Source of the DNA: Chloroflexota bacterium
GTDB lineage: Bacteria; Chloroflexota; UBA11872; VXOZ01
Direction of reading: 5' to 3'
Assembly: GCA_964291655.2 (NCBI GenBank)
Contig: OZ219802.1
Location: forward strand, 992,001 to 1,056,000
Length of the DNA: 64,000 bases
In this document: piece after piece, positions 5,485 to 45,101 of the stretch
Position numbering within the stretch: the stretch's first letter is position 1
Layout: each line of letters begins with the position of its first letter
Notes under the pieces: generated by a model
The model's database searches: none
What the model saw: only the letters and a program-made list of their open reading frames with translations
What the model was told of the DNA's origin: nothing
Made by a program: the position numbers and the translations under genes

Positions 5485-5548
5485 CGAGCGGGAAGACTGT
5501 CGGGAGTTCTGGTGCCGGGATTCATCCCCTCACCCCAACCCTCTCCCC

Positions 5549-6813
5549 TGTATAGACCGGGTACATGGGTTACACATGTTCGGGCACATAGGTTACACCT
5601 TAAGGCATGGAGATTCTTACAGATGGAGGAGCGCCATGCCTTGGAAGGAGAGTACGGTTGTGTCTGAACGCAAGGAGTTCATTGCACTGGCACTGATGGA
5701 AGGGGCCAACATCAGCGAGCTGTGTCGCCGTCTGGAGATCAGTCGCAAGACGGCGTACAAGACGCTGGAGCGGTATGCGAAAGCTGGCGAAGACGGTTTG
5801 CACGACCGGTCGCGGCGGCCGCACACGTGTCCGCACCGCACGCGCCCGGCGCTGGAGGAGCGCATCATCGCCTTGCGCCTGGCGCATCCGAAGAAAGGCG
5901 CACACGTGCTGCGCCGGATGCTGCAGGACCAGGGGGTCACCGACGTGCCGGCCAAGAGCACCATCAATGCCATTCTCAAACGCCATGGGCTCATCGATCC
6001 AGCCCAGAGCGCCAAGCACACGCCCCATGTGCGCTTCGAACGACCCCAGCCCAACGAGCTGTGGCAGATGGACTTCAAGGGACATTTCGTCATGCAGCAG
6101 AACCGCTGTCATCCTCTCACCCTCCTAGACGATCACTCCCGCTTCAACCTCGGGTTACAGGCCTGTGCCAACGAGCGGGGAGAGACGGTCCAAGACCGCC
6201 TCACCGCTGTCTTTCGCCGCTACGGCTTGCCCCAGGCCATGCTCATGGACAACGGCTCTCCCTGGGGTAACGACAGTGCCCAGCCCTTCACGCCCCTCAC
6301 CGTCTGGCTCATGCAGCTGGGCATCAACGTCCTGCACAGCCGACCCTACCATCCCCAGACACTCGGCAAGCTGGAACGCTTCCACCGCTCCCTCAAGAGC
6401 GAACTGCTGGCAGGGACCACCTTTACCGACCTGGACCATTGCCAGCGCGCCTTTGACACCTGGCGCCACTTCTACAACTTGGAACGCCCACACCATGCCC
6501 TCGATCTCGACACTCCCATTACCAGATACACGCCTAGTCCTCGCCCTTTCCCAGAGACCTTGCCTGCCCTCGCCTACGCTCCCGACGACCGCGTACGCAG
6601 CGTCGATGTCTCCGGCCGCATCTCCTTCCAAGGCAGACGGCTCCGTGTGGGCAGGGCCTTCACGCACAAGCAAGTCGCCCTGCGACCCACCCGAACGGAC
6701 GGTGTCTGGGACGTGTACTTCTCGATCCAAAGAGTAAAAACCATAGACCTCAGAGCACAAAATGTGTAACCTATCTACCCGAACATCTGTTACCTATGTC
6801 CCCGGTCTGTACA
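5549..6813 (+). mobile_element. IS481-family insertion sequence, copy 1 (1265 bp)
   Basis: TGT...ACA ends with inverted subterminal repeats; 6-bp target duplication CTCCCC (5543-5548 / 6814-6819). Confidence 0.95.
5636..6769 (+). CDS. IS481-family transposase
   Basis: N-terminal HTH; integrase core WQMDFKG, DNGSPW, GKLERFHRSLK; SD GGAGG before ATG 5636. Confidence 0.95.
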   Translation: MPWKESTVVSERKEFIALALMEGANISELCRRLEISRKTAYKTLERYAKAGEDGLHDRSRRPHTCPHRTRPALEERIIALRLAHPKKGAHVLRRMLQDQGVTDVPAKSTINAILKRHGLIDPAQSAKHTPHVRFERPQPNELWQMDFKGHFVMQQNRCHPLTLLDDHSRFNLGLQACANERGETVQDRLTAVFRRYGLPQAMLMDNGSPWGNDSAQPFTPLTVWLMQLGINVLHSRPYHPQTLGKLERFHRSLKSELLAGTTFTDLDHCQRAFDTWRHFYNLERPHHALDLDTPITRYTPSPRPFPETLPALAYAPDDRVRSVDVSGRISFQGRRLRVGRAFTHKQVALRPTRTDGVWDVYFSIQRVKTIDLRAQNV

Positions 6814-6823
6814 CTCCCCAGGG

Positions 6824-6920
6824 AGAGGGAGTCTCCGGCCTGTCGGCGTGGGCTCTCCCCAGCAAGAGGGAGCCTTCGGCCTGTCGGCGTGGGTTCTCCA
6901 CAGCGAGAGGGAGCCTCTCC
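6824..6920 (+). repeat. 41-bp tandem repeat (~2.4 units) containing degenerate REP cores
   Basis: agagggag...cggcctgtcggcgtggg.tctcc.cagc repeated at 6824, 6865, 6906. Confidence 0.8.
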
Positions 6921-6995
6921 GTCTGCCAGGTACAGGTGTACAAGGTCGCCCAGGAAGTGGGAACCGGCTAGGTGCGCGCTTTTCACTGCCAACCT

Positions 6996-7185
6996 GTAGC
7001 GCGGAGGCTTGTCCTCCGCTCCTTGCCTCCCGATCCGCCGCACGAGGACACGCAACTCGACCATTGCTTGCCATCCCGTAGCGCGGGTGCTTGTCCCCCG
7101 CTCTTCGCCTCCCCATCTGCATCACGTGGTCACGCAACTCTACCCTTGCCTGCCATGCCGCAGTGTCGGGGGTTTTCCCTCACTG
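6996..7185 (+). repeat. 82-bp tandem repeat headed by a GTAG-type REP (GTAGCGCGGGGGCTTGTCCCCCGC)
   Basis: Units start at 6996, 7078 and 7160 (degenerate); same REP at 26978-27001, 28269-28292, 29184-29208, ~54730. Confidence 0.8.
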
Positions 7186-7223
7186 CTCGGCACGCATGAC
7201 TTTCGCCAAATTGAGCAAAGTGC

Positions 7224-7634
7224 TTAGTTACTCGGCTCAGGCGTTTTCACCACGGTGGGACCCGCCGGAGTAGGTGTAGGCTCCTGGCTTGGTGGTGCCG
7301 GAATCTTCAACTCCTGGCCGATGGAGAGAGGATAGGGGTCTTGTAGGTTGTTCGCTGCGGCGATCTGTTGCCACGTAACGCCTGGAAACTTGTCGGCAAT
7401 TGTGCTCAAAGTGTCCCCGGACACTACCGTATAGACAGAGTCTTCAGACGGTTGTGCCGTCGCTCCCGCCACAGGTGTCGGACTTGGTCGAATAATGGTA
7501 ATTGTCGGAGTCGGCGTGGGGGGTACTTCCTCGCCGTCCTCATCTCCCATGAATGGGATGCAGCCGGCTGCCAGCACGACCAGGGCGACGCCCAGCACCA
7601 TAGATTGCGCAATCGAACGACTATCCTGCTTCAT
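7224..7634 (-). CDS. LysM-domain lipoprotein with Pro/Thr-rich linkers
   Basis: Lipobox LAAGC; LysM YTVVSGDTLSTIA...IAAANNL...IGQELKIP. Confidence 0.9.
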   Translation of the reverse strand: MKQDSRSIAQSMVLGVALVVLAAGCIPFMGDEDGEEVPPTPTPTITIIRPSPTPVAGATAQPSEDSVYTVVSGDTLSTIADKFPGVTWQQIAAANNLQDPYPLSIGQELKIPAPPSQEPTPTPAGPTVVKTPEPSN

Positions 7635-8054
7635 GCTGACCCTCTCTGCTTCGTTACAGTTCGCAATGCCGCTCGTCTTCAGCCTTCGCTAGAATTCATT
7701 TACGAACCCCGACGTACTCAAGAGCTATCCCAGGAAACGACAAGGGATAACGCTGCACTGAACTACGTGAAACCCATGGAAACATAGGAGACGGAGGCAA
7801 TAAGGAGATACGAGGGGCTCTATCAGGAACGCTCCAGAGTCCTTGCTACATCGGCTTGGCCGCTCACTACGAGTGCGAATCGAGCTATCCAACGGGATTG
7901 CCAACTCCTCGGCGTTCAATGTTAATGTAGTACACACATAAAGCTCCTGACAAGTTTCTCGAGGAGCTGCACAGGTCGTCGTGTGCGTCGTGGGCGGCCA
8001 TCGAGATTGGGTCGAGCTAAATTCATTGAGCCGTTCCCACCCCTGAACGGTGTC

Positions 8055-8783
8055 TCACCCTGTTAGCAAATCGCCCGGCAGGTGCTCTACACGGTTTTGG
8101 TAGCGAATCACCGTCTCATTCTCTGTGAATTCCAGACTCGTCATGCCTGTATTGTAGTGATTGAAGTAGCATTCCCCCTGTTGCTGGCTGCCCATGAGAG
8201 CATGCAATAAGCCATTGGCCGCCGTGCCGTGGGTGATGATGGCAATGTGCTCATCCGTACTCTTTGCCATCGAGCGCAGCTCCTCCGCCACACGTGCCAG
8301 GCGTGGTAAATACTCTGCCTCTCCTTCCGGCGGACGGTTCCACCAACCGTCAGCGGCAAAGTCCGGCGGGATGACATAGCCAGGAAACTGCTCACCCACC
8401 TCTGCACGGGTAAGCCCCGCATGTCCGCGCGGGCCACGCCCGTTGCTTTCGTCATATCGTATGCCGCCCGACTCGTGCAGATCCAGCCAAATCTCCGGGT
8501 GAAGGCCGAGAGCGGCCGCCACCGGTTGCGTCGTTTGCAGCGCCCGCCGCATGGGACTACACAATAGCCGCGCGATGGCATAACCCGAACGATCGCCGTG
8601 CTGTGGCTGCTGGCCCGCTATCAACCTACTCTGCAAGTGCTCGCCAAGCAGCGCAGCCTGTCTCCGGCCCACGTCCGAAATGGCGGGGTCAGTCAGGTAA
8701 CACCGTTCGGCCGGAGGCATACTCGCAAGCCGAACGCCCCGGCGGTAGGTCACGTGGGCGTGGCGGATGATGTACAGTCTCAC
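8055..8783 (-). CDS. Histidine phosphatase (phosphoglycerate mutase) family protein
   Basis: YIIRHA, SPMRRALQT, IITHG motifs. Confidence 0.88.
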   Translation of the reverse strand: MRLYIIRHAHVTYRRGVRLASMPPAERCYLTDPAISDVGRRQAALLGEHLQSRLIAGQQPQHGDRSGYAIARLLCSPMRRALQTTQPVAAALGLHPEIWLDLHESGGIRYDESNGRGPRGHAGLTRAEVGEQFPGYVIPPDFAADGWWNRPPEGEAEYLPRLARVAEELRSMAKSTDEHIAIITHGTAANGLLHALMGSQQQGECYFNHYNTGMTSLEFTENETVIRYQNRVEHLPGDLLTG

Positions 8784-8936
8784 GCTCGTCCTCCGTCCAA
8801 TCTCCGTGTCGATTCATGCCGCGCTCGATGCCCGAGATTCTCATCCCGCTCGATACGTGCCTCCGACTTTGCGCCCGTAGCGCAGCGCATCAACGTCTGC
8901 TGCATTAGTCCTGTCGCTCCGCAATTCCCCAGGGCG

Positions 8937-9518
8937 TTAGCCGCCTTCCTCCGGTCGAAAGTTCAGATGCACCTTGCTCTCAGTGGGTTTGTCTTGGTCC
9001 TGGTACTTGCTGCCGAGTCCGGGTGAACCGTAGGGCCGGTCTACGGGAGTAGTCATCGTAAGAAACGAAATCTGCCCAATGAACATGCCCGGATAGAGCG
9101 GGATCGGGAGTTTTGCCACATTCGAGAGTTCCAGGGTTATCGTGCCGGAAAATCCCGGGTCGATGTATCCCGCCGTCGAGTGGATGATGAGACCGAGGCG
9201 CCCCAGCGAACTCTTACCTTCCAGGCGGCCCACCAAGTCTTCGGGCAGCCCCACGCGTTCAAGGGTAGTGCCGAGAGCAAATTCTCCCGGATGCAGCACG
9301 AACGGCTCGTCCTCCGCTACCTCGACACTCTGCGTGAGATCAGGCTGCGGCGCGCTCACGTCAATGTGCGTATAGCGGCTGTGCTCGAAAACGCGAAAGT
9401 GCCTGCCCAGCCGCACGTCCACGCTGGAGGGCTGCACGTGCTCCGCCGCGAACGGCTCGATGCACAAACGTCCCTGAGCTATAAGTTCTGAAATTGTTCG
9501 GTCGCTAAGAACAGACAT
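8937..9518 (-). CDS. dcd: dCTP deaminase
   Basis: QPSSVDVRLG, EGKSSLGRLG, AGYIDPGF, GTITLE, SKYQ. Confidence 0.95.
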   Translation of the reverse strand: MSVLSDRTISELIAQGRLCIEPFAAEHVQPSSVDVRLGRHFRVFEHSRYTHIDVSAPQPDLTQSVEVAEDEPFVLHPGEFALGTTLERVGLPEDLVGRLEGKSSLGRLGLIIHSTAGYIDPGFSGTITLELSNVAKLPIPLYPGMFIGQISFLTMTTPVDRPYGSPGLGSKYQDQDKPTESKVHLNFRPEEGG

Positions 9519-9756
9519 GAGTTGCCACGCGCCATCCTCGCCGCGAATTGTCTACGTGCCACTGGTCAGTATAGTGCAGACGGAAGAAGGCCGCGCCTTT
9601 CACGTGCCCTTCGCGGGACCACACACGTTCTCATGCAGTTGACGCTGGACCAGTCAAGGCACAGAGTGCTAACTGTCCCAGTTTCGTGCTATCCTATCGT
9701 GTAAGATTACTCCAATTCCACGTCAATTCCAAGAATACGCGAAAGGAAACTGCGGT

Positions 9757-11091
9757 ATGCAAGTCAAGTCGAAGCTGGCGTTACTTGGTGGCCCTAAGTC
9801 GGTGCAAAGCGATCCCGGTGACATTTTCAATTGGCCCATCGTGACCCCGGAGCACGAAGAAGCCGTCTTGGAAGTGCTGCGGCGGGGCGGCATGTCCGGG
9901 ACGGACGTTACCCGGCAATTTGAGAGTGAATACGCCGAGTGGATTGGCACAACGTATGCGCTCGGCGCGAACACGGGCACTGAGGCGCTGCGCGCGGCAA
10001 TGTACGGTTGCGGCGTGGGCGTAGGCGACGAGTTGATCTCGCCCAGCGTGACGTATTGGGCGTCGTGTCTGCAGGCGCTTTCGCTGGGCGCAAGCGTCGT
10101 CTTTGCCGACATCGACCCGGATACACTCTGCATTGACCCCAACGACATCGAGCACCGCATCTCCGATCGCACCAAGGCCATCGTGGCGGTTCATTACTGC
10201 GGGCATCCCGCCGACATGGACCCCATCATGGAGATCGCGCGCAAGCACAACCTCAAGGTCATCGAGGACGTTTCCCACGCCCACGGCGGGCTCTATAAGG
10301 GCCGCACGTTGGGCACGATCGGCGACGCTGCCGGCATGTCGCTCATGAGCGGTAAGTCATTTGCCACCGGCGAAGCGGGCATCATGACTACCAACAACCG
10401 CGAAATCTATGACCGCGCCGTGGCCTTCGGGCATTATGACCTGTACTCCGAAGAGAACATCGAGACTGACTACCTGAAGCCCTATGCCGGTCTGCCCCTC
10501 GGCGGGTATAAGTACCGCGTCAACCAGTTGAGTTCCGCCATGGGCAGGGTGACGCTGAAGTACTACGACGGCTACATCGCGGAAATCCAGCAAGCCATGA
10601 ACTATTTCTGGGACCTCTTGGAAGGCGTGCCCGGCATTGCGCCGCACCGTCCCGCCACAGATTCCAACAGCACCATGGGCGGCTGGTACGCGGCCCGCGG
10701 CCTCTATCGTCCCGAAGAGGTTGGCGGTCTTTCGATTTCGCGCTTCGCGCAGGCCGTCTCAGCCGAGGGCGCGCGCTGCAGTCCAGGCACCAACAAGCCC
10801 CTGCACCCGCATCCGCTCTTCCACGAGGCCGACGTCTACGGTCACGGCAAGCCCACCGCCATTGCCAACGCGAGTCGGGACGTGCGCCAACCGCTGGGCA
10901 GTCTGCCGGTCAGCGAAGGAATTAGCGCGCGGACCTACAGCATCCCGTGGTTCAAGAAGTTCCGACCGCAGATCATAGAAGAATATGCTAGCGCCTACCG
11001 CAAAGCCGCCGAGAACTACGAAGAGTTGTTGGAAGACGATGAAGGCGGCGGGGAAGACATTGGCACGTGGCGGTTTTTCACTCCGTCGTAA
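9757..11091 (+). CDS. DegT/DnrJ/EryC1/StrS PLP-dependent aminotransferase
   Basis: VFADID, VHYCGHPADMD, IEDVSHAHG, SLMSGKSF, GEAG. Confidence 0.92.
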   Translation: MQVKSKLALLGGPKSVQSDPGDIFNWPIVTPEHEEAVLEVLRRGGMSGTDVTRQFESEYAEWIGTTYALGANTGTEALRAAMYGCGVGVGDELISPSVTYWASCLQALSLGASVVFADIDPDTLCIDPNDIEHRISDRTKAIVAVHYCGHPADMDPIMEIARKHNLKVIEDVSHAHGGLYKGRTLGTIGDAAGMSLMSGKSFATGEAGIMTTNNREIYDRAVAFGHYDLYSEENIETDYLKPYAGLPLGGYKYRVNQLSSAMGRVTLKYYDGYIAEIQQAMNYFWDLLEGVPGIAPHRPATDSNSTMGGWYAARGLYRPEEVGGLSISRFAQAVSAEGARCSPGTNKPLHPHPLFHEADVYGHGKPTAIANASRDVRQPLGSLPVSEGISARTYSIPWFKKFRPQIIEEYASAYRKAAENYEELLEDDEGGGEDIGTWRFFTPS

Positions 11092-11553
11092 GAGTTACAC
11101 CTCTGTGAATGTCGCGTAGCTGCCAAAAGACACCTCAAACTAGGAATCCTGCGATCCACGAGGGTCATTTTCCTCGCTCGTAGTGATTTCACTGGTTGAG
11201 CAACTGAATGAGCATCGTGCGCCTGTTGTACAAACGTATGACAGGCGCATTTACATTCTGTGGCATCTTTCGTCTATTTAGAAATCCGCTAGGCGAGAAA
11301 CCTTGCGCCTAGCTTGTTGATTCGTATCCCCATGCGCAACTCCTCCCGGGAACGGTGCAGTCTGCCTCTAGATTCACGTCGTCTCCTGCAACAGCCCGGT
11401 CGCACCATGCGCGAGCAACCGCCCCAAATCCGGGATCACATCAACAAACATGCCTGCAAACCAGCGGTTTTTCGCACCAAACACTCTTTTGGCTTTCCGG
11501 CCTTTTGGCTTACACTGTCATTAAGAGGATAGTGTGGAACGCAGAGAGAGGTA

Positions 11554-11781
11554 ATGGCTATGGATCAATTAGGGATCGTCCTTCTTGTTGGTGTCCTTAT
11601 CATCAGCGCCTGGCTCATTATTCCCCGCATCTTTCCTCATCCGCAGATGAACTGCACTCGGTGTGAAGGCAGCGGCGCGGTAGACGAGAAGTGGCCTAAC
11701 CCCGACGAACCGAGCGGTTGGCACGAACTCAAGGGTCCCTGTCCCAAGTGCGAGGGCAAGGGCAAAGTACGGGCAGCCTAG
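11554..11781 (+). CDS. Small membrane-anchored protein with DnaJ-type zinc finger
   Basis: N-terminal TM helix; CTRCEGSG and CPKCEGKG motifs; SD before ATG. Confidence 0.8.
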   Translation: MAMDQLGIVLLVGVLIISAWLIIPRIFPHPQMNCTRCEGSGAVDEKWPNPDEPSGWHELKGPCPKCEGKGKVRAA

Positions 11782-11905
11782 CGTGCGCTTTGGGCCTATG
11801 GGAGCGCCTTGGCATGTCATGCCGAAGAGACTCTGGCACTAGCTGGCGCGATGCAAGCGCCCACCCGGAAACTGCGGCCGCTCACGGCGCCTGGAAAGGC
11901 CACAC

Positions 11906-12859: not shown

Positions 12860-13002
12860 TGACTGCGTGAGGCCGTCCTAAACGCTGTTTGGTCAAGCCT
12901 TTGATGTGCGTCACTTGGCCCAAACTCAATCTGTTTGCTGCAGGGCTTCCGCTACGTCTATGTAGCCCCTGGGTCGCAACATCGATTTCTTGAGTCTAGC
13001 AC

Positions 13003-13626: not shown

Positions 13627-13660
13627 GACAATCTCTCCTTCCATGGGGACGTGCAGGGAC

Positions 13661-14107
13661 CTACTTTGGCGGCAGTCTGACGATCGCGAACCAAAAGTCC
13701 TCCAAAGACTGCACCACCGTCGCAAACTGCTCCAAGCCGACCGGCTTGGTTATGTAGCAATTCGCGTGTAGTTGGTAGCTCTTCAATATGTCTTCATCCT
13801 GTGAAGACGTGGTGAGCACCGCCACGGGAATTGTCTTGAGATCGGAATCTTCTTTGATGTCTGCCAGCACCTCGCGCCCATCTTTGCGGGGCATGTTGAG
13901 ATCGAGCAAGATGAGGTCCGGCCGGGGCACGGCAGCATAGGCGCCTTCCTTGCGCAAGAAGGCGAGCGCTTCAACCCCGTCGCCTACCACGTGCAGGTTG
14001 GTACGAATCTTGCTGCCGAGGAGAGTTTCCTCGGTGAGAAGCACGTCGCCCGGATCATCCTCGACGAGGAGGACCTCAACCGGCTTCGCCGCCTGTTCGC
14101 TCGCCAT
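13661..14107 (-). CDS. Single-domain response regulator (Rcp1-like)
   Basis: [32 protein letters not shown]. Confidence 0.93.
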
Positions 14108-14113
14108 TCGCTC

Positions 14114-16805: not shown

Positions 16806-16814
16806 AGAAACCTC

Positions 16815-21620: not shown

Positions 21621-21674
21621 GAGACCCCTGCGTTAGATGGGTCCTGAGGAAAGTGTATTATCCCCTCTCCCTGG

Positions 21675-23556
21675 GGAGACCATTGCGAAACCTAAGGGGA
21701 AACGAGAGCGTCCCCTCTCCCTCGACGGGAGAGGGCTAGGTTGAGGGTGAATCTCCAGAAAGCTATCCACATGCACCGAATCTGCCCTGATACATCTTGA
21801 CACTTCACTGCGTAAAGGGCCATTGTATAAAAAGACCCCCTCATCCCAACCCTCTCCCCCAGAGGGTGTCTCAAAAATAGATCTACTGGATATATACTGG
21901 TGTGAAGAGAAGCAAGGTGAGGTGGTGGGATAGTTTGTAGAGAGGTAGTGACGATGCCGTTGAGACCGTTTAGTCGTGAACAGGCCTGGCTGTTGCCGCC
22001 GACGCTGGACGAACTGATCCCGGACGACCATCCTGTCAGGTTTGCGGCAGCGTTCGTGGACAGCCTCGATGCTGCGGCCTGGGAGGCGATGGAGATTGAC
22101 CTGCAAGGCGATCCGCGTGGCGCCGGGGCCTACCATCCGCGCGCGCTGCTGGGCGTATGGGTCTACGGCTTCATGACCGGCGTGCGCTCGAGCCGCAAGC
22201 TGGAGGCAGCCTGCCGGGATCAGGTACCGTACCTGTGGCTGGTGGGGATGCAGCAGCCGGACCACAACACGCTGTGGCGCTTCTACAAGGCGCACCGCGA
22301 CCGGATGCGGATGCTGCTCAAGCGCACGGTGCGCACGGCGGTGCGAGCCGGCCTGGTGGAGTTGGCAATCCAGGCGGTGGACGGCACCAGGATCGCGGCC
22401 AACGCCGGGACGCGGCATACCCACGACGCGCAGGGGCTGCAGCGGCTGTTGTCCCGCACCGAGCAAGCGATCGCGGACCTGGAGGCGCAGAACGCCACGG
22501 GGGGCGACGCGCCGCCAGCGACTTTGCCGCAGGAACTTGCCGATGCCCAGGCCCTGCGGCGGCGGGTGGACGACGCGCTCGCCCGCGTCGCGGCTGAGGA
22601 CGGGCCGCGCTACACGAACCTGACTGATGCGGACGCGGCCCTGCTCAAGACTGGCATGGGTGGCTTCATCACCGGCTACAACGCCCAGGCGCTGGTCTCC
22701 CCTCTTGCGTCCCCGGACGAGGGCGCAGGGGGGAGGTTGATCACAGCCGTGGACGTGAGCGCCAGTGCCGACGACCATCCCCACCTGGCGCCGCTGATCG
22801 AGGCGGCGCAGGAGAACATCGACGCCGCGCGGGACGTGGTGACCGTTGCGGACGCCGGCTACCATTCGGGGGCCAACCTCGCCACGTGCCACGCCGGCGG
22901 CCACACGGTATTGATGCCCACGACCCACGAGCGCAGACGCCGCAACCCCTACCATAAAGACCACTTCACCTACCGTCCAGAGACCGACACCTACCTGTGT
23001 CCCCAGCAAAAGGTGCTCACCTACACGCACCGCTTGACCCACAGCAACGGCTACCGGGTCAAGCGGTACCAAGCCAACGGCCGGGACTGCAGAACCTGTC
23101 CGGCCTTCGGCGTCTGCACCTCCTCCCAGAGGGGCCGCTCCATAAAGATCAGCGCCTACGAGCCAATACTGCAACGGCACAGGCAGTTGATGGCCACCGC
23201 GCCTGCCAAGCAGGTGTACCGCCGCCGGAGTACCATCGTCGAGCCGGTCTTTGGCCTGCTCAAGGAGTGGCACAGTGCCAGGCGCTTCCTGCTCAGAGGC
23301 CGCAGCCACGTGACGTCCGAATGGCACCTGCTGGCCACCGCGTTCAATCTCAAGAGCCTCCACGCCCTGTGGCGGTCTGGGTGTAGTCCAGCGTCGCCCC
23401 GGGGACGAGTCTCTCACTGGCACCGTCTTGTTCATACCACCCGCCATCTGTCTGTCCTTCTCACCCCATTCACCGTGCCCCGCACCAAAATATTGAGACA
23501 GCCTCCCCAGGAGAGGGAGTGCCCCTGCTTGAATGTGGGGCTATGCAAAAGTCTCC
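21675..23556. mobile_element. MITE (~234 bp empty) interrupted by IS1182-family element
   Basis: Termini GGAGACCATTGCG...TGCAAAAGTCTCC, flanked by TGG/TGG; reverse-complement homolog of 42081-43587. Confidence 0.8.
21862..23505 (+). mobile_element. IS1182-family insertion sequence
   Basis: IRs GAGGGTGTCTCAAAA / TATTGAGACAGCCTC; 4-bp duplication CCCA. Confidence 0.88.
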
Positions 23557-23588
23557 TGGGGGGACCTTTGCACAACTCAAGCCGGTAA
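21948..23588 (+). CDS. IS1182-family transposase
   Basis: LIPDDHPVR, YHPRALL, SSRKLE, PDHNTL, AVDGTRI, GYNAQ, ADAGY, VEPVFG, AFNL motifs. Confidence 0.93.
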   Translation: MTMPLRPFSREQAWLLPPTLDELIPDDHPVRFAAAFVDSLDAAAWEAMEIDLQGDPRGAGAYHPRALLGVWVYGFMTGVRSSRKLEAACRDQVPYLWLVGMQQPDHNTLWRFYKAHRDRMRMLLKRTVRTAVRAGLVELAIQAVDGTRIAANAGTRHTHDAQGLQRLLSRTEQAIADLEAQNATGGDAPPATLPQELADAQALRRRVDDALARVAAEDGPRYTNLTDADAALLKTGMGGFITGYNAQALVSPLASPDEGAGGRLITAVDVSASADDHPHLAPLIEAAQENIDAARDVVTVADAGYHSGANLATCHAGGHTVLMPTTHERRRRNPYHKDHFTYRPETDTYLCPQQKVLTYTHRLTHSNGYRVKRYQANGRDCRTCPAFGVCTSSQRGRSIKISAYEPILQRHRQLMATAPAKQVYRRRSTIVEPVFGLLKEWHSARRFLLRGRSHVTSEWHLLATAFNLKSLHALWRSGCSPASPRGRVSHWHRLVHTTRHLSVLLTPFTVPRTKILRQPPQERECPCLNVGLCKSLLGGPLHNSSR

Positions 23589-24077
23589 GAGAGAAGATCC
23601 CCTCACTCCCGTATCAAGTTCGGGGCAGGCTCTAACCCTCTCCCTCAGGAGAACTTTGCGTAACTCCGTCATTCCGGCTTGCGCCGGAATCCAGAGCGCC
23701 TTTACACCTAAAGATAGCATAATGTCAAGTCATTTCACCCTCAGCCCCGAATCGTGTCCCTTCGCTGTATCGAGTACAGGGCAGGCTCCAGCCGTCTCCC
23801 GTCCAGGAGACCTTTGCATAGCCCTTACCGAGGCGAGGATGTCCCCTCTCCCGGCGGGAGAGGGTTAGGGTGAGGGGGAATCCCCGCAATCCGGGCTATT
23901 TTCACCGAAAGTACACACATTCGTGTAAGTGTTAGAGGTCTAAAGGACAGGATAGGCGGTATCCCCTCACCCCAGAGAGAGGGTGCAATTCTAGCGCCGT
24001 TGGCCGAGGTTACGCAAAGGTCTTCGTCGAGAGAGAGGGAACTTTCTCGCTGCGGCAAGGGTTATGCAATGGTCTCC
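23560..24077. mobile_element. Cluster of nested/tandem MITEs and palindromes
   Basis: Left termini at 23560, 23648, 23806; right termini ending 24025 and 24077; internal REP hairpins and GTCATTCCGGC...GCCGGAATC palindrome. Confidence 0.7.
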
Positions 24078-35147: not shown

Positions 35148-35162
35148 GACGAGAGCAAGAGT

Positions 35163-37982: not shown

Positions 37983-38046
37983 CCTTGTGCACCGTAATCC
38001 GCGCAGTTTGACCGCTTAGGTCGCTGTACGTGAAGGGATATCCGCC

Positions 38047-39254
38047 ATAGCCAGCGCACGAGAGCCTCAGGCGCGCCCCGCTGAGCGTGCCGTCCTCATC
38101 ATCGGCGGCGGCATAGGCGGTCTGGCAGCCGCCCTTTCCTTGCAACAGGCCGGCATTCCCGCCGCTGTTTACGAACGCGCGCCGCTGTTGCAGGAAGTTG
38201 GGGCGGGTATCGGCATCGGCGCGAATGGTATGTACGCGCTGGAAAAACTCGGCGCAGCCCATGCGGTGAGAGCTGCGGGATCGCCAGTAGAGGCGTCGAG
38301 CTATGCGCGCAAGACGGCGCGGTCTTGAGCGCATTGTCCACGGGGCCAACCGAAAGAAAACTCGGCGTTGCGACCACGCTGGTGCACCGTGCGGACCTGC
38401 ATGCGGCATTGGCAGCGAGGCTGGATTCAGACTTCGTGCGGCTGGGCAGTGAATGCGTTGGGTTTTCCCAGGACGACACCCGTGTAACGGCGAGATTCGC
38501 CAATGGCGAAGAAGCGCGAGGCGATCTGCTGATTGGCGCTGACGGACTATACAGCACCGTTCGCAGGCAACTGTGGGGTGATGTGCCGCCACGGTACGCA
38601 GGCTACACGTCATGCCGTGGAATTGTCGACTCCGACACGATAGCTCTGCAGGTGGGCACAGGGTTCGAAGCCTGGGGGCGCGGTCTCCGGTTTGGGCTCT
38701 TCCACATCGGCAAAGGACGTGCCTACTGGTACGCCACCTGGAACGCGCCCGCAGGGGAATCGCAGTCCGGGCAGCCGCTCAAGCGCCGATTGCAGGAATT
38801 CTTCGCAGACTGGGACGCGCCGGTGCCGCAAGCACTTGACGCCACCCCAGCGGAAACTCTGGTCCGCACCGACATCTGCGATCGCCCTCAGCTCTCCAGG
38901 TGGGGACTAGATCGCGTGTCTCTGCTCGGTGACGCGGCGCATCCCACCACCCCGAATCTCGGGCAAGGCGCGTGCATGGCAATCGAAGATGCGGTGGTCC
39001 TTGCCCAGTGCCTTAGCCACCAGAGCGACCCCGTTGCGGCATTGCGCACGTATGAGGGTCGCCGCCGCGCGCGTACGGCCAACATCGTGAGCGCCTCCAG
39101 GCGCATGGGATGGATCGGTCAATGGCAGAATCCCCTCGCCTGCGCCCTGCGTAATACCGCCCTGAGACTCACCCCGCAGCGGCTTGCCCAAAGTCGCGGT
39201 GATGGGGGACTCCGAGCAGCCGTTAGAAATCTGGACCCACAGGGCTTGCCCTAA
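38047..39254 (+). pseudogene. FAD-dependent monooxygenase, frameshifted
   Basis: IIGGGIGGL in one frame (ATA at expected start), frameshift near 38310-38325, then GADGLYS and LLGDAAHPTTPNLGQG. Confidence 0.8.
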
Positions 39255-39361
39255 ACAACGGCTTGCACCGGTCTTGGCGACTTCACCCGACCTCTGAGCG
39301 AGTTCCCATGGTATGGCATCTGCAAGTGAAGTTCACTCAAGCGGACTGCTTCTGCTTCCGT

Positions 39362-39841
39362 CTATGTCTGCGTCGTAGACTTTTCGTACGCCTCGTCAAC
39401 CGGCAAATCCTTGCCCCGCGCCGCCGCGTTCGCGAGCGCATCGCAGCGCTCGTTTTCCGGTATTCCCTTGTGACCGGGTACCCACTTGAAAGTAACGCGG
39501 TGCGTGGCAGCTAGGTTGAGCAAGATCTCCCAGAGATCGGGATTGGCGGCCTTGCCCTGCTTTCCACGTTTCCACCCCTGCGCTTTCCACCTCTCTGCCC
39601 AACCTTGCATCATTGCATTCACAAGATATGCGGAATCACTATGCAAGGTCACCTCGCAGGGCTCGGTGAGCGTTTCCAATGCCCGGATGGCCGCAAGAAT
39701 CTCCATGCGGTTGTTCGTCGTCATGCGAAATCCGCCGGCAATTTCCTTGCGGTGTTGATTGAACATGATTACCGCGCCGTAGCCGCCCGGCCCGGGGTTA
39801 CCGATGCAAGCACCGTCCGTGTAGATAGTGACACGTTTCAT
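39362..39841 (-). CDS. rnhA: Ribonuclease HI
   Basis: YTDGACIGNPGPGG, TTNNRME, DSAY, WVPGH, NERCD. Confidence 0.97.
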   Translation of the reverse strand: MKRVTIYTDGACIGNPGPGGYGAVIMFNQHRKEIAGGFRMTTNNRMEILAAIRALETLTEPCEVTLHSDSAYLVNAMMQGWAERWKAQGWKRGKQGKAANPDLWEILLNLAATHRVTFKWVPGHKGIPENERCDALANAAARGKDLPVDEAYEKSTTQT

Positions 39842-40084
39842 ATGGACATATTGGGTCGTCCCATGCTGCAATTAGACCACGCTCAGCCATGCAGTCAGCT
39901 TGCGCTAGGCCACGCCAAGGCCCGTGCTGCATAGTCGCCGCTCCTCTCCCCAATCGGCGCAATCTTCTTCAGCGAACCCCTAGCGCGCGCTGCCTTGCCC
40001 CAATTCCCTCCATAGCAGACTCTTGCACAACATGAAGGCTCTTGCACCCTCTAGGCTGGCAGCAGCGGAAACCCCCGCTCCTTG

Positions 40085-40224
40085 GGAGACCTTTGCGTAA
40101 CTCCGTCATTCCGGCGAAAGCCGGAATCCAGAGCGCTTTTACAACTAAAGACAGCATGATGTCAAGTCATTTCACCCCCATCCCAACCTTCCCCTCAAAG
40201 GTGAAGGGTTATGCAAAGGTCTCT
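40085..40224. mobile_element. 140-bp MITE
   Basis: GGAGACCTTTGCGTAAC...GTTATGCAAAGGTCTCT, flanked by TTG/TTG; interior homologous to 23648-23740. Confidence 0.8.
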
Positions 40225-40413
40225 TTGGGAAGAGGACCGGGCTGAGGAGAAAACTTCGTCGCTTCAGTCTAGATTCTTGCTATTTGTCAGAGCTACACGA
40301 TGGTCTCTTTCACATACACAATCACGGGGCAATATCTGTAGACTGAGTTAGCCCTCTAGAATCGAACATTGGAGGATCTTTCCACGGATGTGGAACCTTA
40401 AACTTGCCTCGAC

Positions 40414-41859
40414 CTATCCACGTGCCAGACGGGAATATTGCTCGCGTCCGGTGTTGAAGATTTCCAGCATGCGTTGCCGCTGGTCGTTATGGTCGAAGCG
40501 GCCTTTTGTTGAAATCCATGCGATAGCGCGCTCGATTGCTGCCACGAAGAACTCAGCCGACGCCCTGGTAGCCGGGTTGAAGCCGCCTGCTTGCACGTAC
40601 ACCGGACTAGTGTGGGCCCATTGCGCATGGCCGTAACTATCGCGCTGCCGACCCCAGCAGCGCGCGGCAATCCAACTGTCATTTGGTACCGTCAAGCGAG
40701 TGCGCAAGACGCCCTCACGCAGGCCGTCACCGTATTCCTCCCGCGCCACCACCTCCCCGTTGCAGATGAGTTCGATGCGTTGCACCGGCCGCAATGCCTG
40801 CCAGCGCACAAAGGTATTCACCTGCTTGCGTCTGCTGGTGCGCATGTCCAGCACGCTGCCAGGCGGCTGGCCGGCAACGCGAAGAGTGAGCGATGGGCCG
40901 TTCGTTATGAACGTTGCCCCGCTCTTGAGACCATCCAACCACGTGTCGTACGAGAAAGAGTCCTCGAGCTGCACGTACACCCGGTTCGCTGAGCACACAA
41001 ACCAGTCTGAGCCGGTGCTGACCGGCAGTTGAAATCCGCAATTGAGCAGGTGGTACCACAGATCGTACTCGGGGTCCGACCAGTAGGGGTCAAAGAGATT
41101 CAGGGCATCCAGCCGCCCCAAACCGGCGGCAATGGGCGCCTCCATTCCCTGGCCGTTGTGACACCAGATCGTCACTCCGCCCTGCTCCTGCGCGGCGGTA
41201 CAGGCATCGATGAGGGGCGGGTAGTCCGGCGCTGATTCATCCACCAGCACACCGCGACTCAGTGGCTCCACGTGCTCTTGCAGCCGCACCAGCATCACAT
41301 GGCCGTAGCCGATATCCCAAGGGGTGCGATTGTGACGAGATTCCTCACCTACGTCCAGCACGTGTCCCGGCGTGGTGGGGTGCTCCATTTGTCCCACTGG
41401 AAAGCGATTTGTCGCGTACTCCAATTCCTGGCGCTGCAGCACGCTGATGATGGTCACGGTGAGGTCTTCTACTGTGGAGTCGAAGCGCAGGCGTTCCTCC
41501 GGCCGGCTTTCAAACTCACGGTAGTGGATGTGGGTATTGCCGGGGTAGAGACCTTGCTTGGGCAGACTTATCCAGCGCTGGAGCGGCATTTCGAGGTTGA
41601 CCGTGCCTTGTGTTGGGAGGTCTACGGTCATTTCGAGCGGCGCGTACTCGGTTCCTCGCTCCACGCGCACGTCCACCTGTCCCCGCGGGCCCTCGAGCGT
41701 GAAAGCGCCGTCGCAGTAGAAGAACGGGTTGGTCGTGCCAACGGTCTCCAAGCTGTCTTCAGGGACAAGGAATCTGCCCTGACTGCTTTGCACCGAGACC
41801 TTCGCTGCCAGCGGGCTGCCGGTAGATGCATCGTGAATTGTGCCCGTAAGAGTTGCCAC
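40414..41859 (-). CDS. CehA/McbA-like PHP-type metallohydrolase
   Basis: VERGTEY, GNTHIH, GEE..H, YGHV, STGSDW, TNGP, AHTSPVYV. Confidence 0.8.
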   Translation of the reverse strand: MATLTGTIHDASTGSPLAAKVSVQSSQGRFLVPEDSLETVGTTNPFFYCDGAFTLEGPRGQVDVRVERGTEYAPLEMTVDLPTQGTVNLEMPLQRWISLPKQGLYPGNTHIHYREFESRPEERLRFDSTVEDLTVTIISVLQRQELEYATNRFPVGQMEHPTTPGHVLDVGEESRHNRTPWDIGYGHVMLVRLQEHVEPLSRGVLVDESAPDYPPLIDACTAAQEQGGVTIWCHNGQGMEAPIAAGLGRLDALNLFDPYWSDPEYDLWYHLLNCGFQLPVSTGSDWFVCSANRVYVQLEDSFSYDTWLDGLKSGATFITNGPSLTLRVAGQPPGSVLDMRTSRRKQVNTFVRWQALRPVQRIELICNGEVVAREEYGDGLREGVLRTRLTVPNDSWIAARCWGRQRDSYGHAQWAHTSPVYVQAGGFNPATRASAEFFVAAIERAIAWISTKGRFDHNDQRQRMLEIFNTGREQYSRLARG

Positions 41860-41947
41860 CGTTATCTCTTCTCCCTGATTGAGCCCATCGCATGACCCGC
41901 GCCGGCCGCCATGAAGACCTAAATCTCCAAGAATGCCGTTGGAAGTC

Positions 41948-42080
41948 TTGTTACCTCTCCCTCCCCAGGAGCAAGACTTGCCCTTCTCACTCCGCTAGCA
42001 CAAGAGCTTCCCTCTCGCACTCCCTAGGCGCGAGACTTGCTCCCTCTCCCTTAGGCGTATAACTTGCTCCCTCTCCCTTA
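41948..42080 (+). repeat. Degenerate ~27-30-bp tandem repeat (cttgctccctctcccttaggcgtataa type)
   Basis: About 5 units; the array continues at 43588-43622 beyond the MITE. Confidence 0.7.
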
Positions 42081-42134
42081 GGAGACCTCTGCATAACCCC
42101 ACTTTCAATCAGGGGCACTCCCTCTCCTGGGGGA

Positions 42135-43399
42135 TGTATAGACCGGGTACATGGGTTACACATGTTCGGGCACATAGGTTACACCTTAAGGCATGGAGAT
42201 TCTTACAGATGGAGGAGCGCCATGCCTTGGAAGGAGAGTACGGTTGTGTCTGAACGCAAGGAGTTCATTGCACTGGCACTGATGGAAGGGGCCAACATCA
42301 GCGAGCTGTGTCGCCGTCTGGAGATCAGTCGCAAGACGGCGTACAAGACGCTGGAGCGGTATGCGAAAGCTGGCGAAGACGGTTTGCACGACCGGTCGCG
42401 GCGGCCGCACACGTGTCCGCACCGCACGCGCCCGGCGCTGGAGGAACGCATCATCGCCTTGCGCCTGGCGCATCCGAAGAAAGGCGCACACGTGCTGCGC
42501 CGGATGCTGCAGGACCAGGGGGTCACCGACGTGCCGGCCAAGAGCACCATCCACGCTGTGCTCACACGCCATGGGCTCATTGATCCCACAGAGAGCGCCA
42601 AGCACACGCCCCATGTGCGCTTCGAACGACCCCAGCCCAACGAGCTGTGGCAGATGGACTTCAAGGGACATTTCGTCATGCAGCAGAACCGCTGTCATCC
42701 TCTCACCCTCCTAGACGATCACTCCCGCTTCAACCTCGGGTTACAGGCCTGTGCCAACGAGCGGGGAGAGACGGTCCAAGACCGCCTCACCGCTGTCTTT
42801 CGCCGCTACGGCTTGCCCCAGGCCATGCTCATGGACAACGGCTCTCCCTGGGGTAACGACAGTGCCCAGCCCTTCACGCCCCTCACCGTCTGGCTCATGC
42901 AGCTGGGCATCAACGTCCTGCACAGCCGACCCTACCATCCCCAGACACTCGGCAAGCTGGAACGCTTCCACCGCTCCCTCAAGAGCGAACTGCTGGCAGG
43001 GACCACCTTTACCGACCTGGACCATTGCCAGCGCGCCTTTGACACCTGGCGCCACTTCTACAACTTGGAACGCCCACACCATGCCCTCGATCTCGACACT
43101 CCCATTACCAGATACACGCCTAGTCCTCGCCCTTTCCCAGAGACCTTGCCTGCCCTCGCCTACGCTCCCGACGACCGCGTACGCAGCGTCGATGTCTCCG
43201 GCCGCATCTCCTTCCAAGGCAGACGGCTCCGTGTGGGCAGGGCCTTCACGCACAAGCAAGTCGCCCTGCGACCCACCCGAACGGACGGTGTCTGGGACGT
43301 GTACTTCTCGATCCAAAGAGTAAAAACCATAGACCTCAGAGCACAAAATGTGTAACCTATCTACCCGAACATCTGTTACCTATGTCCCCGGTCTGTACA
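42135..43399 (+). mobile_element. IS481-family insertion sequence, copy 2 (1265 bp)
   Basis: Nearly identical to copy 1; 5-bp duplication GGGGA. Confidence 0.95.
42222..43355 (+). CDS. IS481-family transposase
   Basis: Near-identical to 5636-6769. Confidence 0.95.
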   Translation: MPWKESTVVSERKEFIALALMEGANISELCRRLEISRKTAYKTLERYAKAGEDGLHDRSRRPHTCPHRTRPALEERIIALRLAHPKKGAHVLRRMLQDQGVTDVPAKSTIHAVLTRHGLIDPTESAKHTPHVRFERPQPNELWQMDFKGHFVMQQNRCHPLTLLDDHSRFNLGLQACANERGETVQDRLTAVFRRYGLPQAMLMDNGSPWGNDSAQPFTPLTVWLMQLGINVLHSRPYHPQTLGKLERFHRSLKSELLAGTTFTDLDHCQRAFDTWRHFYNLERPHHALDLDTPITRYTPSPRPFPETLPALAYAPDDRVRSVDVSGRISFQGRRLRVGRAFTHKQVALRPTRTDGVWDVYFSIQRVKTIDLRAQNV

Positions 43400-43622
43400 G
43401 GGGAGAGGGTCGGGGTGAGGGGAATCTTTTTGCTACAATGGCCCTTTACGCTGAGTAGTGTCAAGACGTATCAGGCAGAATCGGTGTGCATGTGGAGAGA
43501 CTTCAGGAGATTCACCCTCACCCTAGCCCTCTCCCGTCGAGGGAGAGGGAACACTCTCGCTTCCGCTTAGGTTTCGCAAAGGTCTCCTTATGGCGTATAA
43601 CTTCCTCCCTCTCCTGGGGGAG

Positions 43623-44887
43623 TGTATAGACCGGGTTGATGGGTAACGCTTGTTCGGGTTGATAGGTTACACCTATAGGCATGGAGAATCTTGCAGCGGG
43701 AGGATGACCATGTCGTGGAAGGTGGAAACGCTTATGTCTGCCCGGGAAGAGTTTATTGCTCTGGCCAATAGTGGCGCGGTGAGAATGAGCGAATTGTGCG
43801 GTCGGTTCAACATCAGCCGCAAGACTGGCTACAAGTGGTTGCGGCGGTACGCGTCGGGGGGAGCGCAGAGCCTGCGTGACCGTTCGCACCGCACGCACAC
43901 GTGTCCGCACCGCACGCGCCCGGCGATGGAGGAACGCATCATCGCGCTGCGTCTGGCGCATCCTACGAAGGGCGCCCATGTGCTGCGCAGAATGCTGCAG
44001 AACCAGGGGCATACTGACGTGCCGGCCAAGAGCACCATCAATGCCATTCTCAAACGCCATGGGCTCATCGACCCGGCCCAGAGCGCCAAGCACACGCCCC
44101 ATGTGCGCTTCGAACGACCCCAGCCCAACGAGCTGTGGCAGATGGACTTCAAGGGACATTTCGTCATGCAGCAGAACCGCTGCCATCCGCTTACCCTCCT
44201 GGACGATCATTCCCGCTTCAACCTAGGTTTACAGGCCTGCGCCAACGAGCGGGGAGAGACGGTTCAAGACCGCCTCACCACTGTCTTTCGGCGCTACGGC
44301 CTGCCCCAGGCCATGCTCATGGATAACGGCTCCCCCTGGGGCAACGACAGTGCCCAGCCTTTTACGCCCCTCACCGTCTGGCTCATGCAGCTGGGCATCA
44401 GCGTGCTCCACAGTAGACCCTATCATCCCCAGACACTCGGCAAGCTGGAACGCTTCCACCGCTCGCTCAAGAGCGAACTGCTGGCAGGAACCAGCTTCAC
44501 CGACCTGGAGCACTGCCAGGGCGCCTTCGACACCTGGCGCGACTTCTACAACTTGGAACGCCCCCATCATGCCCTCGATCTCGACACACCCATCACCAGA
44601 TACACGCCTAGTCCGCGCCCCTTCCCTGAGACGTTGCCTGCCCTCGACTACGCTCCTGACGACCACGTGCGCAGCGTCGATGTCTCCGGTCGCATCTCCT
44701 TCCAGGGCAGACGGCTCCGTGTGGGCAGGGCCTTCACCCACAAACAGGTCGCACTCAGGCCTGCCCAAACCGACGGCATCTGGAACGTGCACTTCTCAAT
44801 ACAACGCATCAAAACCATAGACCTCAGAGAACAAAATGTGTAACCTATCAACCCGAACACCTGTTACCTATCAGCCCAGTCTGTACA
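43623..44887 (+). mobile_element. IS481-family insertion sequence, variant copy 3 (1265 bp)
   Basis: TGT...ACA ends; 6-bp duplication GGGGAG. Confidence 0.95.
43710..44843 (+). CDS. IS481-family transposase (variant N-terminus)
   Basis: Same core as copies 1/2; divergent HTH. Confidence 0.95.
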   Translation: MSWKVETLMSAREEFIALANSGAVRMSELCGRFNISRKTGYKWLRRYASGGAQSLRDRSHRTHTCPHRTRPAMEERIIALRLAHPTKGAHVLRRMLQNQGHTDVPAKSTINAILKRHGLIDPAQSAKHTPHVRFERPQPNELWQMDFKGHFVMQQNRCHPLTLLDDHSRFNLGLQACANERGETVQDRLTTVFRRYGLPQAMLMDNGSPWGNDSAQPFTPLTVWLMQLGISVLHSRPYHPQTLGKLERFHRSLKSELLAGTSFTDLEHCQGAFDTWRDFYNLERPHHALDLDTPITRYTPSPRPFPETLPALDYAPDDHVRSVDVSGRISFQGRRLRVGRAFTHKQVALRPAQTDGIWNVHFSIQRIKTIDLREQNV

Positions 44888-45101
44888 GGGGAGAGGGCCG
44901 GGGTGGGGGGGATCGGGTGCCCATCTACCCCAATTCCATTTGCATGCCAGAGCTACACAAGTGCCTGCTTGTGCGTTCAGGCAACTACCATTGCTGCAGA
45001 CCTGTCCGCCTTCTTTCAAGATCAGGATACACAACCTGCGCGGCTACGGTATACACCTGTGGCAGTGATCCTGCCGCATGGCACATCGAGCCGCGTCACG
45101 C

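Follow-up and report, generated by a model that had tools for sequence, protein, structure and literature searches.

Insertion sites of IS481, IS1182 and miniature inverted-repeat elements in a hairpin repeat family of a Chloroflexota genome

The 64,000-nucleotide stretch analyzed here (the window; G000:C2:992001-1056000, on contig OZ219802.1 of assembly GCA_964291655.2) comes from a Chloroflexota bacterium with a 3.47-Mb genome in two contigs (59% G+C, completeness of 97.6%). It contains three copies of an IS481-family insertion sequence (IS), here called IS481-A, one IS of the IS1182 family and several MITEs (miniature inverted-repeat transposable elements); these lie in or beside copies of one palindromic repeat. 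This repeat is a unit of about 35 bp resembling a repetitive extragenic palindrome (REP), with a C-rich 5' arm CCCTCTCC, a loop of 3 to 5 nt and a G-rich 3' arm GGAGAGGG, and the module GGGGTGAGGGG usually adjoins it. The hairpin is found alone and also as cargo of nonautonomous MITEs with GGAGACCTTTGC ends, referred to below as GGAGACC MITEs. In the window, CCCTCTCC occurs 21 times versus an expectation of 2.15, and the maximum in 100 shuffles was 6.

A preliminary description had stated that removing each IS together with one copy of its target duplication restores a hairpin of this family, and all of its claims about the three IS481 copies, the IS1182 copy and their flanks in the window were borne out. 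IS481-A copy 1 is flanked by ...CCCTCTCCCC and CTCCCCAGGGAGAGGG, and taking it out with one copy of the duplication CTCCCC gives the empty site CCCTCTCCCCAGGGAGAGGG; copy 3 rebuilds the same empty site as copy 2, CCCTCTCCTGGGGGAGAGGG. The five MITE starts named in that description (21676, 23649, 23807, 40086 and 42082) each lie 4 to 7 nt past an arm with at most one mismatch. None of the IS insertions in the window interrupts a gene, and no IS copy was seen in a gene genome-wide. The label "IS5-like" given to the MITEs found no confirmation: in this genome, elements with such ends have no transposase of their own. Coordinates are collected in Table 1.

Table 1. Hairpin-associated elements and hairpins in the window (window coordinates)
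Feature	Position	Strand	Description
Left half of split hairpin	5526..5548		Module CCCCTCACCCC, 2 nt, arm CCCTCTCC + CC; last 6 nt (CTCCCC) are one duplication copy
IS481-A copy 1	5549..6813	+	1265 bp; transposase open reading frame (ORF) 5576-6769
Right half of split hairpin	6814..6829		CTCCCC (second duplication copy), AG, arm GGAGAGGG
Target half-site of GGAGACC MITE	21663..21675		Arm CCCTCTCC + CTGGG directly before MITE end
235-bp-type GGAGACC MITE with IS1182 nested in one of two internal hairpins	21676..23555		1880 bp; CTGGG on either side
Unoccupied hairpin inside MITE 21676..23555	21713..21735		CCCTCTCCC-TCGAC-GGGAGAGGG; 23-nt subtype
IS1182 copy	21862..23505	+	1644 bp; ORF starts at 21948, no internal stop; loop CCCA duplicated (21858-21861, 23506-23509); arms CCCTCTCC and GGAGAGGG
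Cluster of GGAGACC-type MITE ends, nested or abutting	23649..24076		Starts at 23561, 23649, 23807; ends at 24024, 24076; unoccupied hairpin 23844-23864
139-bp-type GGAGACC MITE	40086..40223		In degenerate hairpin CCCGCTCC-TTGG / GGAAGAGG
235-bp-type GGAGACC MITE with IS481-A copy 2 nested in its hairpin	42082..43586		After arm CCCTCTCC + CTTAG
IS481-A copy 2	42135..43399	+	99% identical to copy 1; duplication GGGGA; empty site CCCTCTCCTGGGGGAGAGGG
Unoccupied second hairpin of MITE 42082..43586	43527..43549		CCCTCTCCC-GTCGA-GGGAGAGGG
IS481-A copy 3	43623..44887	+	86% identical to copy 1; GGGGAG duplicated; hairpin and module restored from the flanks at 43607-43622 and 44888-44910

IS481-A is 1265 bp long and has the terminal inverted repeats TGTATAGACCGGG...CCCGGTCTGTACA. 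Ends of the form TGT...ACA and duplications of about 5 to 6 bp are typical of IS481, and the element shows both the terminal inverted repeats and the short target duplication by which the family is recognized. Its transposase belongs to IS481 by its match to the NCBIfam equivalog NF033577 (290.2 bits; cutoff, 224) and also matches Pfam rve, rve_3 and LZ_Tnp_IS481. Alignment with the family model stops at residue 318 of 397 (window 5576-6769), leaving a C-terminal tail of about 80 amino acids without a family match, which is a candidate for the target-reading part of the protein. The IS1182 element is 1644 bp long with ends GAGGGTGTCTCAA...TTGAGACAGCCTC, and its transposase belongs to IS1182 by equivalog NF033551 (364.2 bits; cutoff, 270), with further matches to Pfam DDE_Tnp_1_6, DUF772 and DDE_Tnp_1. 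The frame of this transposase has no stop inside the element, either in the window (21948-23588) or in any other copy, and its 519 codons are open to the last base; translation therefore ends in the flank, with open frames of 454 to 624 amino acids between copies.

Genome-wide, IS481-A is present as 24 full copies and 44 derived MITEs of 286 to 288 bp with the same ends (the 287-bp type). Sites were rebuilt strictly, by removing one duplication copy and requiring arms with at most 1 mismatch and a loop of 2 to 8 nt, and the family hairpin was recovered at 66 of these 68 insertions (24/24 full copies and 42/44 MITEs). One of the two misses has family arms on either side and mismatched flanks; the other is considered below. 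A second IS481 element, IS481-B (1287 bp, about 72% identical to IS481-A over 486 bases), has four copies, and all four lie in the hairpin. IS1182 has 23 complete copies plus two that are cut by contig ends, and in all 23 complete copies CCCTCTCC ends exactly 4 nt before the element and GGAGAGGG starts exactly 4 nt after it; of the contig-end copies, one has a hairpin flank and the other has none. Contigs C1 and C2 each break off inside a copy of IS1182, at an identical internal base some 73 nt from its left end, so the assembly is broken at the IS1182 repeat and not closed. The genome-wide enrichment that the preliminary description had proposed to look for is thus strong, and the adverse case it had named, with most copies outside the repeat, does not hold.

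In a self-comparison of the genome, homology between IS copies reached at most about 300 bases past the element, so these are separate insertions and not segmental duplications. The only multicopy elements in that comparison were IS481-A, IS481-B and IS1182, and it yielded no control IS aimed elsewhere than at the hairpin; 16 low-copy repeats that were checked were mostly adjacent paralogues (74 to 86% identity) or a pair of dispersed, nearly identical segments in which no frame resembled a transposase. A scenario of random insertion followed by purifying selection, in which the survivors are those copies that fell into harmless repeats, would be in keeping with the compactness of the genome and the lack of IS copies in genes. 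However, the unoccupied hairpins make up 4,741 bases (0.14% of the genome) and hairpins as a whole about 0.14 to 0.2%, far below the intergenic space, and the probability of finding 24 of 24 copies in hairpins by chance is about 1e-64 with occupied sites included in the target space. As the insertions also recur at the same nucleotide positions within the hairpin, this scenario is refuted for practical purposes, and we give it almost no weight.

Each element has its own position in the hairpin. Among the 68 IS481-A insertions, the duplication is 5 bp long in 43, 6 bp in 15 and 3 bp in 1 and is absent in 9; it typically reads CTCCC(C)/(G)GGGAG, lies at the arm/loop junction and falls on the module-side arm in 57 cases versus 6 (p=1.6e-11). 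The IS481-B duplication has 5 bp and is always CCCTC/GAGGG; it is taken from the outer end of this arm, and the cut lies 4 nt further out than that of IS481-A. For IS1182 it is the 4-nt loop that is duplicated, with identical flanks in 13 of the 23 copies, and for the GGAGACC MITEs it is C-NNN-G, that is, the loop of 3 to 5 nt. The hairpin occurs in size subtypes of 20, 21 and 23 nt, and their use differs as well: IS481-A is found in the 20-nt subtype in 41 of 58 cases and in the 23-nt subtype in 2 of 58, compared with 56/227 among unoccupied hairpins (p=9e-5), and IS1182 is found in the 20-nt subtype in 23/23 cases and in the 23-nt subtype in 0/23 (p=0.003), contrasts that are inflated because the unoccupied pool is what insertion left over, and 17 of 26 GGAGACC MITEs use the 21-nt subtype. 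Further, the module is present at 64 of the 66 IS481-A-occupied hairpins versus 147 of 227 unoccupied ones (Fisher 1.4e-8). A single hairpin at G000:C2:1707063-1710009 holds both IS481-B and IS1182, 12 bases apart and each at its own position; IS481-A and IS481-B are likewise combined near C2:2406571-2409369, as are IS1182 and IS481-A at C2:1158653-1161837.

On the basis of these positions, we suggest that the cut for IS481-A and its 287-bp MITE would be staggered and lie where arm and loop meet, mostly toward the module, leaving the duplication of 5 to 6 bp, and that the IS481-B cut would fall at the outer end of that arm, 4 nt beyond. IS1182 would join at both feet of the loop, with duplication of the 4-nt loop, and the GGAGACC MITE may do likewise with loops of 3 to 5 nt.

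The preliminary description had also named the possibility that the hairpin halves belong to the elements and travel with them. Similar flanks are indeed found on every IS copy, the termini of IS1182 and of the MITEs (GAGGG... and GGAGAC...) resemble the G-rich arm, and hairpins are truly cargo of the 235-bp and 98-bp MITEs. However, with the asymmetric module as the reference, each element occurs in both orientations (11 to 13 for IS481-A, 18 to 22 for its MITE and 10 to 9 for IS1182), and the loops vary between sites while the flanks match across a given copy as a duplication (59/68 for IS481-A; 13/23 for IS1182). Hairpins without any insertion are also common in this genome: 161 have exact arms and 227 are counted when one mismatch per arm is allowed, a few of the latter probably due to chance, and about 120 more are occupied. 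Finally, related genomes retain intact hairpins at orthologous sites. At the site of IS481-A copy 3, the closest relative, G008 (flanks 94 to 95% identical), reads an intact ...CTTCCTCCCTCTCCTTGGGGAGAGGGCCGGGGTGAGGGG..., and G003 has the same intact unit; G008 also lacks the MITE with IS1182 at window 21676-23555, where the target site is uninterrupted, and the MITE with IS481 at 42082-43586, where the site reads CCCTCTCCCTTAGGCG without interruption. For the IS copies, it is therefore scarcely credible that the hairpin is part of the element. In most sister species the segment from 5486 to 7225 is missing, with about 27 bases in its place. In G003, the seven IS1182 copies listed match over 12 to 26 bases past both IS ends, which, judged from match lengths, is consistent with the same arms.

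The GGAGACC MITEs have 299 recognizable ends genome-wide, and an arm lies within 9 nt of 168 of them, compared with 1,230 of 200,000 random positions (0.6%). The duplication is clear in 42 pairs of ends; a strict family hairpin is recovered from 26 of them but not from 14, and these 14 sites have only a short YCC-NNN-GGR pattern in common. A hairpin-plus-module unit occurs twice in the 235-bp form, with the two in inverted orientation, and once in the 98-bp form; the 235-bp MITE both carries hairpins and inserts into hairpin loops, and the landing pad is therefore spread by its own user. The 139-bp form (window 40086-40223 and from 23649 onward) has a different hairpin of its own, CATTCCGGC-GAAA-GCCGGAATC (about 86 copies in the genome), and no CCCTCTCC hairpin, and the MITE family is therefore modular. 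Nesting is frequent: at least 23 pairs of ends enclose IS481-A, IS481-B or IS1182, a 287-bp MITE nested inside would fit pairs of about 525 bases, and the GGAGACC MITE also inserts into a pseudohairpin composed of an arm together with an older MITE's GGAGAC end. Nested IS481 or IS1182 copies or further nested MITEs explain 43 of 45 long pairs of ends, and the other two look like mispairs. In this genome of 97.6% completeness, all 25 matches to PF01609 are IS1182 copies and PF13359 has none, so no IS5-type transposase other than that of IS1182 was found; by eye, the ends of IS1182 show no likeness to those of the GGAGACC MITEs.

Complete MITEs enclose 44 of the 227 unoccupied hairpins; a single MITE end lies within 260 bases of another 84, and the remaining 99 have no MITE end nearby. 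The hairpin at 23844-23864 has a predicted fold of -13.2 kcal/mol, and the 23-nt-subtype hairpin at 43527-43549 has one of -10.7 kcal/mol as folded single-stranded DNA. Upstream of the MITE that starts at 42082, positions 41990-42081 are occupied by tandem units of about 27 bases (GCGTATAACTTGCTCCCTCTCCCTTAG-like), each closing with a lone left arm, and this half-hairpin array has more units in G008. IS481 copy 1 is directly followed, at 6830-6900, by a unit of about 45 bases that is present twice (...TCCGGCCTGTCGGCGTGGG(C/T)TCTCC...).

The target hairpin is one of several abundant palindromes in the genome. A census of perfect palindromes with a 7-bp stem and a loop of 3 to 6 nt gave GCGGGGG...CCCCCGC (150 copies), ATTCCGG (86 copies; the own hairpin of the 139-bp MITE), CGCAGGT (about 72 to 75), ATTCCCG (61), CCCCGTA (45) and GGCACGA (45). 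The commonest, GCGGGGG-CTTGT-CCCCCGC, is often preceded by TGTAGC, and the polarity of its arms is opposite to that of the target hairpin. None of the 95 IS481-A, IS481-B and IS1182 insertions lies in a GCGGGGG, CGCAGGT or GGCACGA stem, and only 1 of the 95 lies in any other abundant palindrome family (CCCCGTA). As other abundant hairpins are spared in this way, neither a mechanism that accepts any hairpin nor a general hairpin-binding host protein is expected. The target hairpin exceeds the 100 palindrome copies expected of REPs that depend on a REP-associated tyrosine transposase (RAYT). The genome has a single RAYT-type tyrosine transposase, at G000:C2:2523380-2524060 (locus L001, 1399-2079, minus strand; NF047646, 82 bits against a cutoff of 80), which is followed by three tandem units with the palindrome GCGGGCG-AGA-CGCCCGC, a REP system separate from the target hairpin. 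We therefore rejected a classical RAYT-REP origin of the hairpin, since the only RAYT is flanked by this different palindrome.

The convergence of unrelated systems on one repeat, as stated in the preliminary description, is upheld; the shared structure-guided or host-protein-guided mechanism that it proposed is not. Under such a mechanism, a protein bound to the repeat, or an extruded hairpin or cruciform, would recruit any transposase, and this could account for the presence of two unrelated transposase families and an orphan MITE on the same repeat and for the association with the hairpin of all 53 transposase-bearing IS copies detected by the rve and DDE_Tnp_1 models. The preference of IS481-A for module-bearing hairpins and for the module-side arm could likewise reflect a module-bound protein, and structure dependence has been proposed for IS1272 (PMC5678879). 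However, a single 20-nt hairpin is cut at four positions, with duplications of differing length, the subtype preferences differ between elements and hairpins of other families, though abundant in the same cell, are spared. The IS481 relatives in other phyla described below also lie in hairpins with a C-rich and a G-rich arm, which fits a property of the transposase better than one of the host. With an own cut position, duplication and subtype for each element and with other hairpins left alone, target choice would therefore lie in each transposase and not in shared host guidance, which we consider unlikely.

Within the genus, each of the 12 other species searched has relatives of IS481-A. Twenty homologues were read in four of these species, and 18 have both arms and 19 have at least one. 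For more distant relatives, one genome per species was scanned; 552 stretches encode IS481-A relatives, and of the best 80, which were read, 76 had readable flanks. A site was counted when a perfect palindrome with a stem of at least 6 bp spanned the rebuilt site, and since mismatched flanks were scored as misses, the resulting shares are minima: 11 of 20 sites at 73 to 84% protein identity, 18 of 28 at 60 to 71% and 7 of 28 at 56 to 60%, against 266 of 5000 random positions. The trait is thus seen in relatives of about 60% protein identity or more and, to a weaker degree, in those below this level, and hairpin targeting in this IS481 subclade is accordingly old. The records of the best 80 are Chloroflexota or Dehalococcoidia metagenome-assembled genomes (MAGs), with single loci labeled Desulfobaccales, Planctomycetota, Thiotrichales and Desulfurivibrio. 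Two of these loci, L091 and L095, in MAGs labeled Desulfobaccales and Thiotrichales, encode IS481 relatives of 57 to 58% protein identity with the same terminal motif and lie in C-arm/G-arm palindromes, which suggests transfer of the element between phyla into hosts with similar repeats. In the class, five other genomes gave no IS1182 relative outside the genus, an empty result that shows little.

Taken together, we consider it likely that each element has a built-in, nucleotide-precise preference for the hairpin unit and that the convergence is evolutionary and not mechanistic; we infer that recognition lies within each transposase and that selection lies behind the convergence. A number of observations weigh against this explanation. 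The stems used by distant relatives differ in sequence and yet stay complementary (CCTTCCCCC/GGGGGAAGG, CCCCCTCCC/GGGAGGGGG and CCCTCCCCG/CGGGGAGGG), so that geometry would be read too. The second IS481-A miss is a MITE in CCCCGTA-CTCGA-TACGGGG, at the equivalent place and next to a GGGGTGAGGG module, which again points to a reading of palindrome geometry, and a relative in another species (L058) lies in a CCCCGTA hairpin with the same ATACG duplication as this one exception. Solitary arms are used by 0 of the 68 IS481-A insertions, though 216 of 839 arm 8-mers lie outside hairpins and recognized elements, a comparison confounded by the many of these that are missed MITE junctions or genic. 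In 10 of the 23 IS1182 copies, the 4-nt flanks differ by one base or wholly, which we attribute, without proof, to recombination between copies of about 99.5% identity. Further, the inflation of the subtype contrasts has to be allowed for, no autonomous partner with GGAGACC ends was found in this genome (at 97.6% completeness, its absence is not proven), all of the evidence consists of fixed insertions read from sequence, and a host factor bound to the repeat may on such data still play a part.

Several of these observations would favor a reading of pure structure, in which stem length, loop size and arm polarity and not bases are recognized and the family is merely the commonest hairpin of the right shape. 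The different but complementary stems of the relatives, the use of the CCCCGTA hairpin at the equivalent position in two species and the way in which the IS1182 and MITE duplications follow loop length all fit it, as does model c of PMC5678879, which describes the pattern seen. A C-rich 5' arm and a G-rich 3' arm are found in all of these stems, which include one of 15 bp, TCCCCCTCTCCCTTA. However, the module-side bias (57 to 6) and the preference for module-bearing hairpins form an asymmetry that is impossible for a symmetric stem-loop, 14 of the 42 clear-duplication MITE insertions are at nonhairpin sites with YCC-NNN-GGR only, and the palindromes GCGGGGG...CCCCCGC, of similar size and opposite polarity, are never used. 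Recognition of structure on its own is therefore improbable in our view, and palindromy is probably read along with sequence, because compensated stem changes are tolerated.

If preference is indeed built into each transposase, elements aimed at an abundant, harmless and self-renewing repeat would multiply in a compact genome, with others being purged, and the supply of targets would grow with the mobile load because each insertion of a 235-bp MITE adds two hairpins. More tentatively, we put forward the possibility that an IS481 subclade with conserved TGTATAGACCGG ends, seen in Chloroflexota-labeled MAGs and at single Thiotrichales and Desulfobaccales loci, is specialized for C-arm/G-arm hairpins by geometry and polarity over exact bases and that in this genus the target it has in common with IS1182 and a hairpin-carrying MITE forms a self-expanding safe-harbor network. 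In that case, the landing pad would multiply with its users, and a 3.5-Mb genome would carry about 160 element copies without gene damage. The genome also provides a clean natural data set on target choice by DDE transposases: three elements account for about 95 insertions, of IS or their derivatives, whose places in a single 20-nt hairpin are defined to the nucleotide, and to these come a second MITE family and, in sister species, empty sites. With these data, members of IS481 join the known repeat-targeting IS, IS1182 gains a case of loop duplication in place of stem-loop deletion, and a compact genome is seen to tolerate many mobile elements when they target a harmless repeat that is itself spread by a MITE. 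Highly site-selective DDE transposases without a guide RNA may also be of practical interest for insertion tools.

Known systems resemble this one in different respects. IS110/IS1111 elements are guided by a bridge or seek RNA, and among them IS621, ISPpu9 and ISPpu10 insert into REPs with very high specificity, according to what is accessible of PMC11208160 and PMC11187229. Those elements combine a DEDD recombinase with the guide RNA, whereas the elements described here have rve-type (IS481) or DDE_Tnp_1-type (IS1182) transposases and target duplications, and we rejected RNA-guided targeting of the IS110 type on these grounds. No guide RNA was indicated for these elements, and in the window neither the hairpin nor a MITE gave an Rfam match at gathering thresholds. 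With REP/REPIN (REP doublet forming hairpin)-RAYT systems, as portrayed in the available parts of PMC3116915 and PMC3333891, the repeat shares short GC-rich palindromes in hundreds of copies, often in inverted pairs as in the 235-bp MITE; unlike them, the CCCTCTCC hairpin is dispersed at least partly inside inverted-repeat MITEs.

Targeting of stem-loops within the IS1182 family is also in print. Wan et al. found that IS1272 inserts at inverted repeats or stem-loops and proposed structure dependence, and their paper (PMC5678879) cites a review for the targeting of palindromes by some IS1182 members. The transposase family and the inverted-repeat targets are the same here, and as in TnSha1 in that paper, the transposase gene can be without a stop codon of its own. 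However, IS1272 reportedly replaces its target stem-loop, leaves no duplication and accepts unrelated sequences, whereas the IS1182 element here keeps both arms (23/23), duplicates the 4-nt loop (13/23) and uses one sequence family for all 23 complete copies, so that stem-loop replacement of the IS1272 type was rejected. The pattern corresponds instead to "pathway c" of the model in that paper, with attack at the loop feet and only the loop duplicated, which is not the pathway favored there.

The closest precedent is the REP targeting described by Tobes and Pareja in 2006 for members of IS3, IS110, IS4, IS256 and IS5, several of them in one genome. The accessible text of that paper (PMC1525189) lists IS1397, ISKpn1 and ISPsy8 (IS3), IS621, ISPpu9, ISPpu10, ISPa11 and ISRm19 (IS110), ISRm22 (IS4), ISRm5 (IS256) and ISNm1106 (IS5). 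As in those cases, all or most copies lie within a palindrome that is short, abundant and extragenic and that serves as a gene-sparing hot spot, and as in Sinorhizobium meliloti, in which three IS families use the REPs, several IS families share the repeat of one genome. With 24/24 IS481-A, 4/4 IS481-B and 23/23 IS1182 copies in the palindrome, each element shows the "type 1 association" of a REP-specific IS with all or nearly all of its copies. With these reports and the one on IS1272, the phenomenon counts as one already described. IS481 and IS1182 each have 0 occurrences in that accessible text, and we found no description of hairpin or REP targeting by an IS481-family element in the open-access papers searched, where supplementary tables may list more cases. 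Unlike those cases, every detectable IS copy is involved here, four elements occupy four defined positions of a single 20-nt hairpin, the genome's RAYT gene is not flanked by the repeat and many copies of the repeat are carried by a MITE. REP hot spots common to several IS families have been known since 2006, and the phenomenon is not a new principle; what look new are the targeting of hairpins by IS481-family members, its completeness, the four registers in one hairpin and a MITE for which the hairpin is cargo as well as target.

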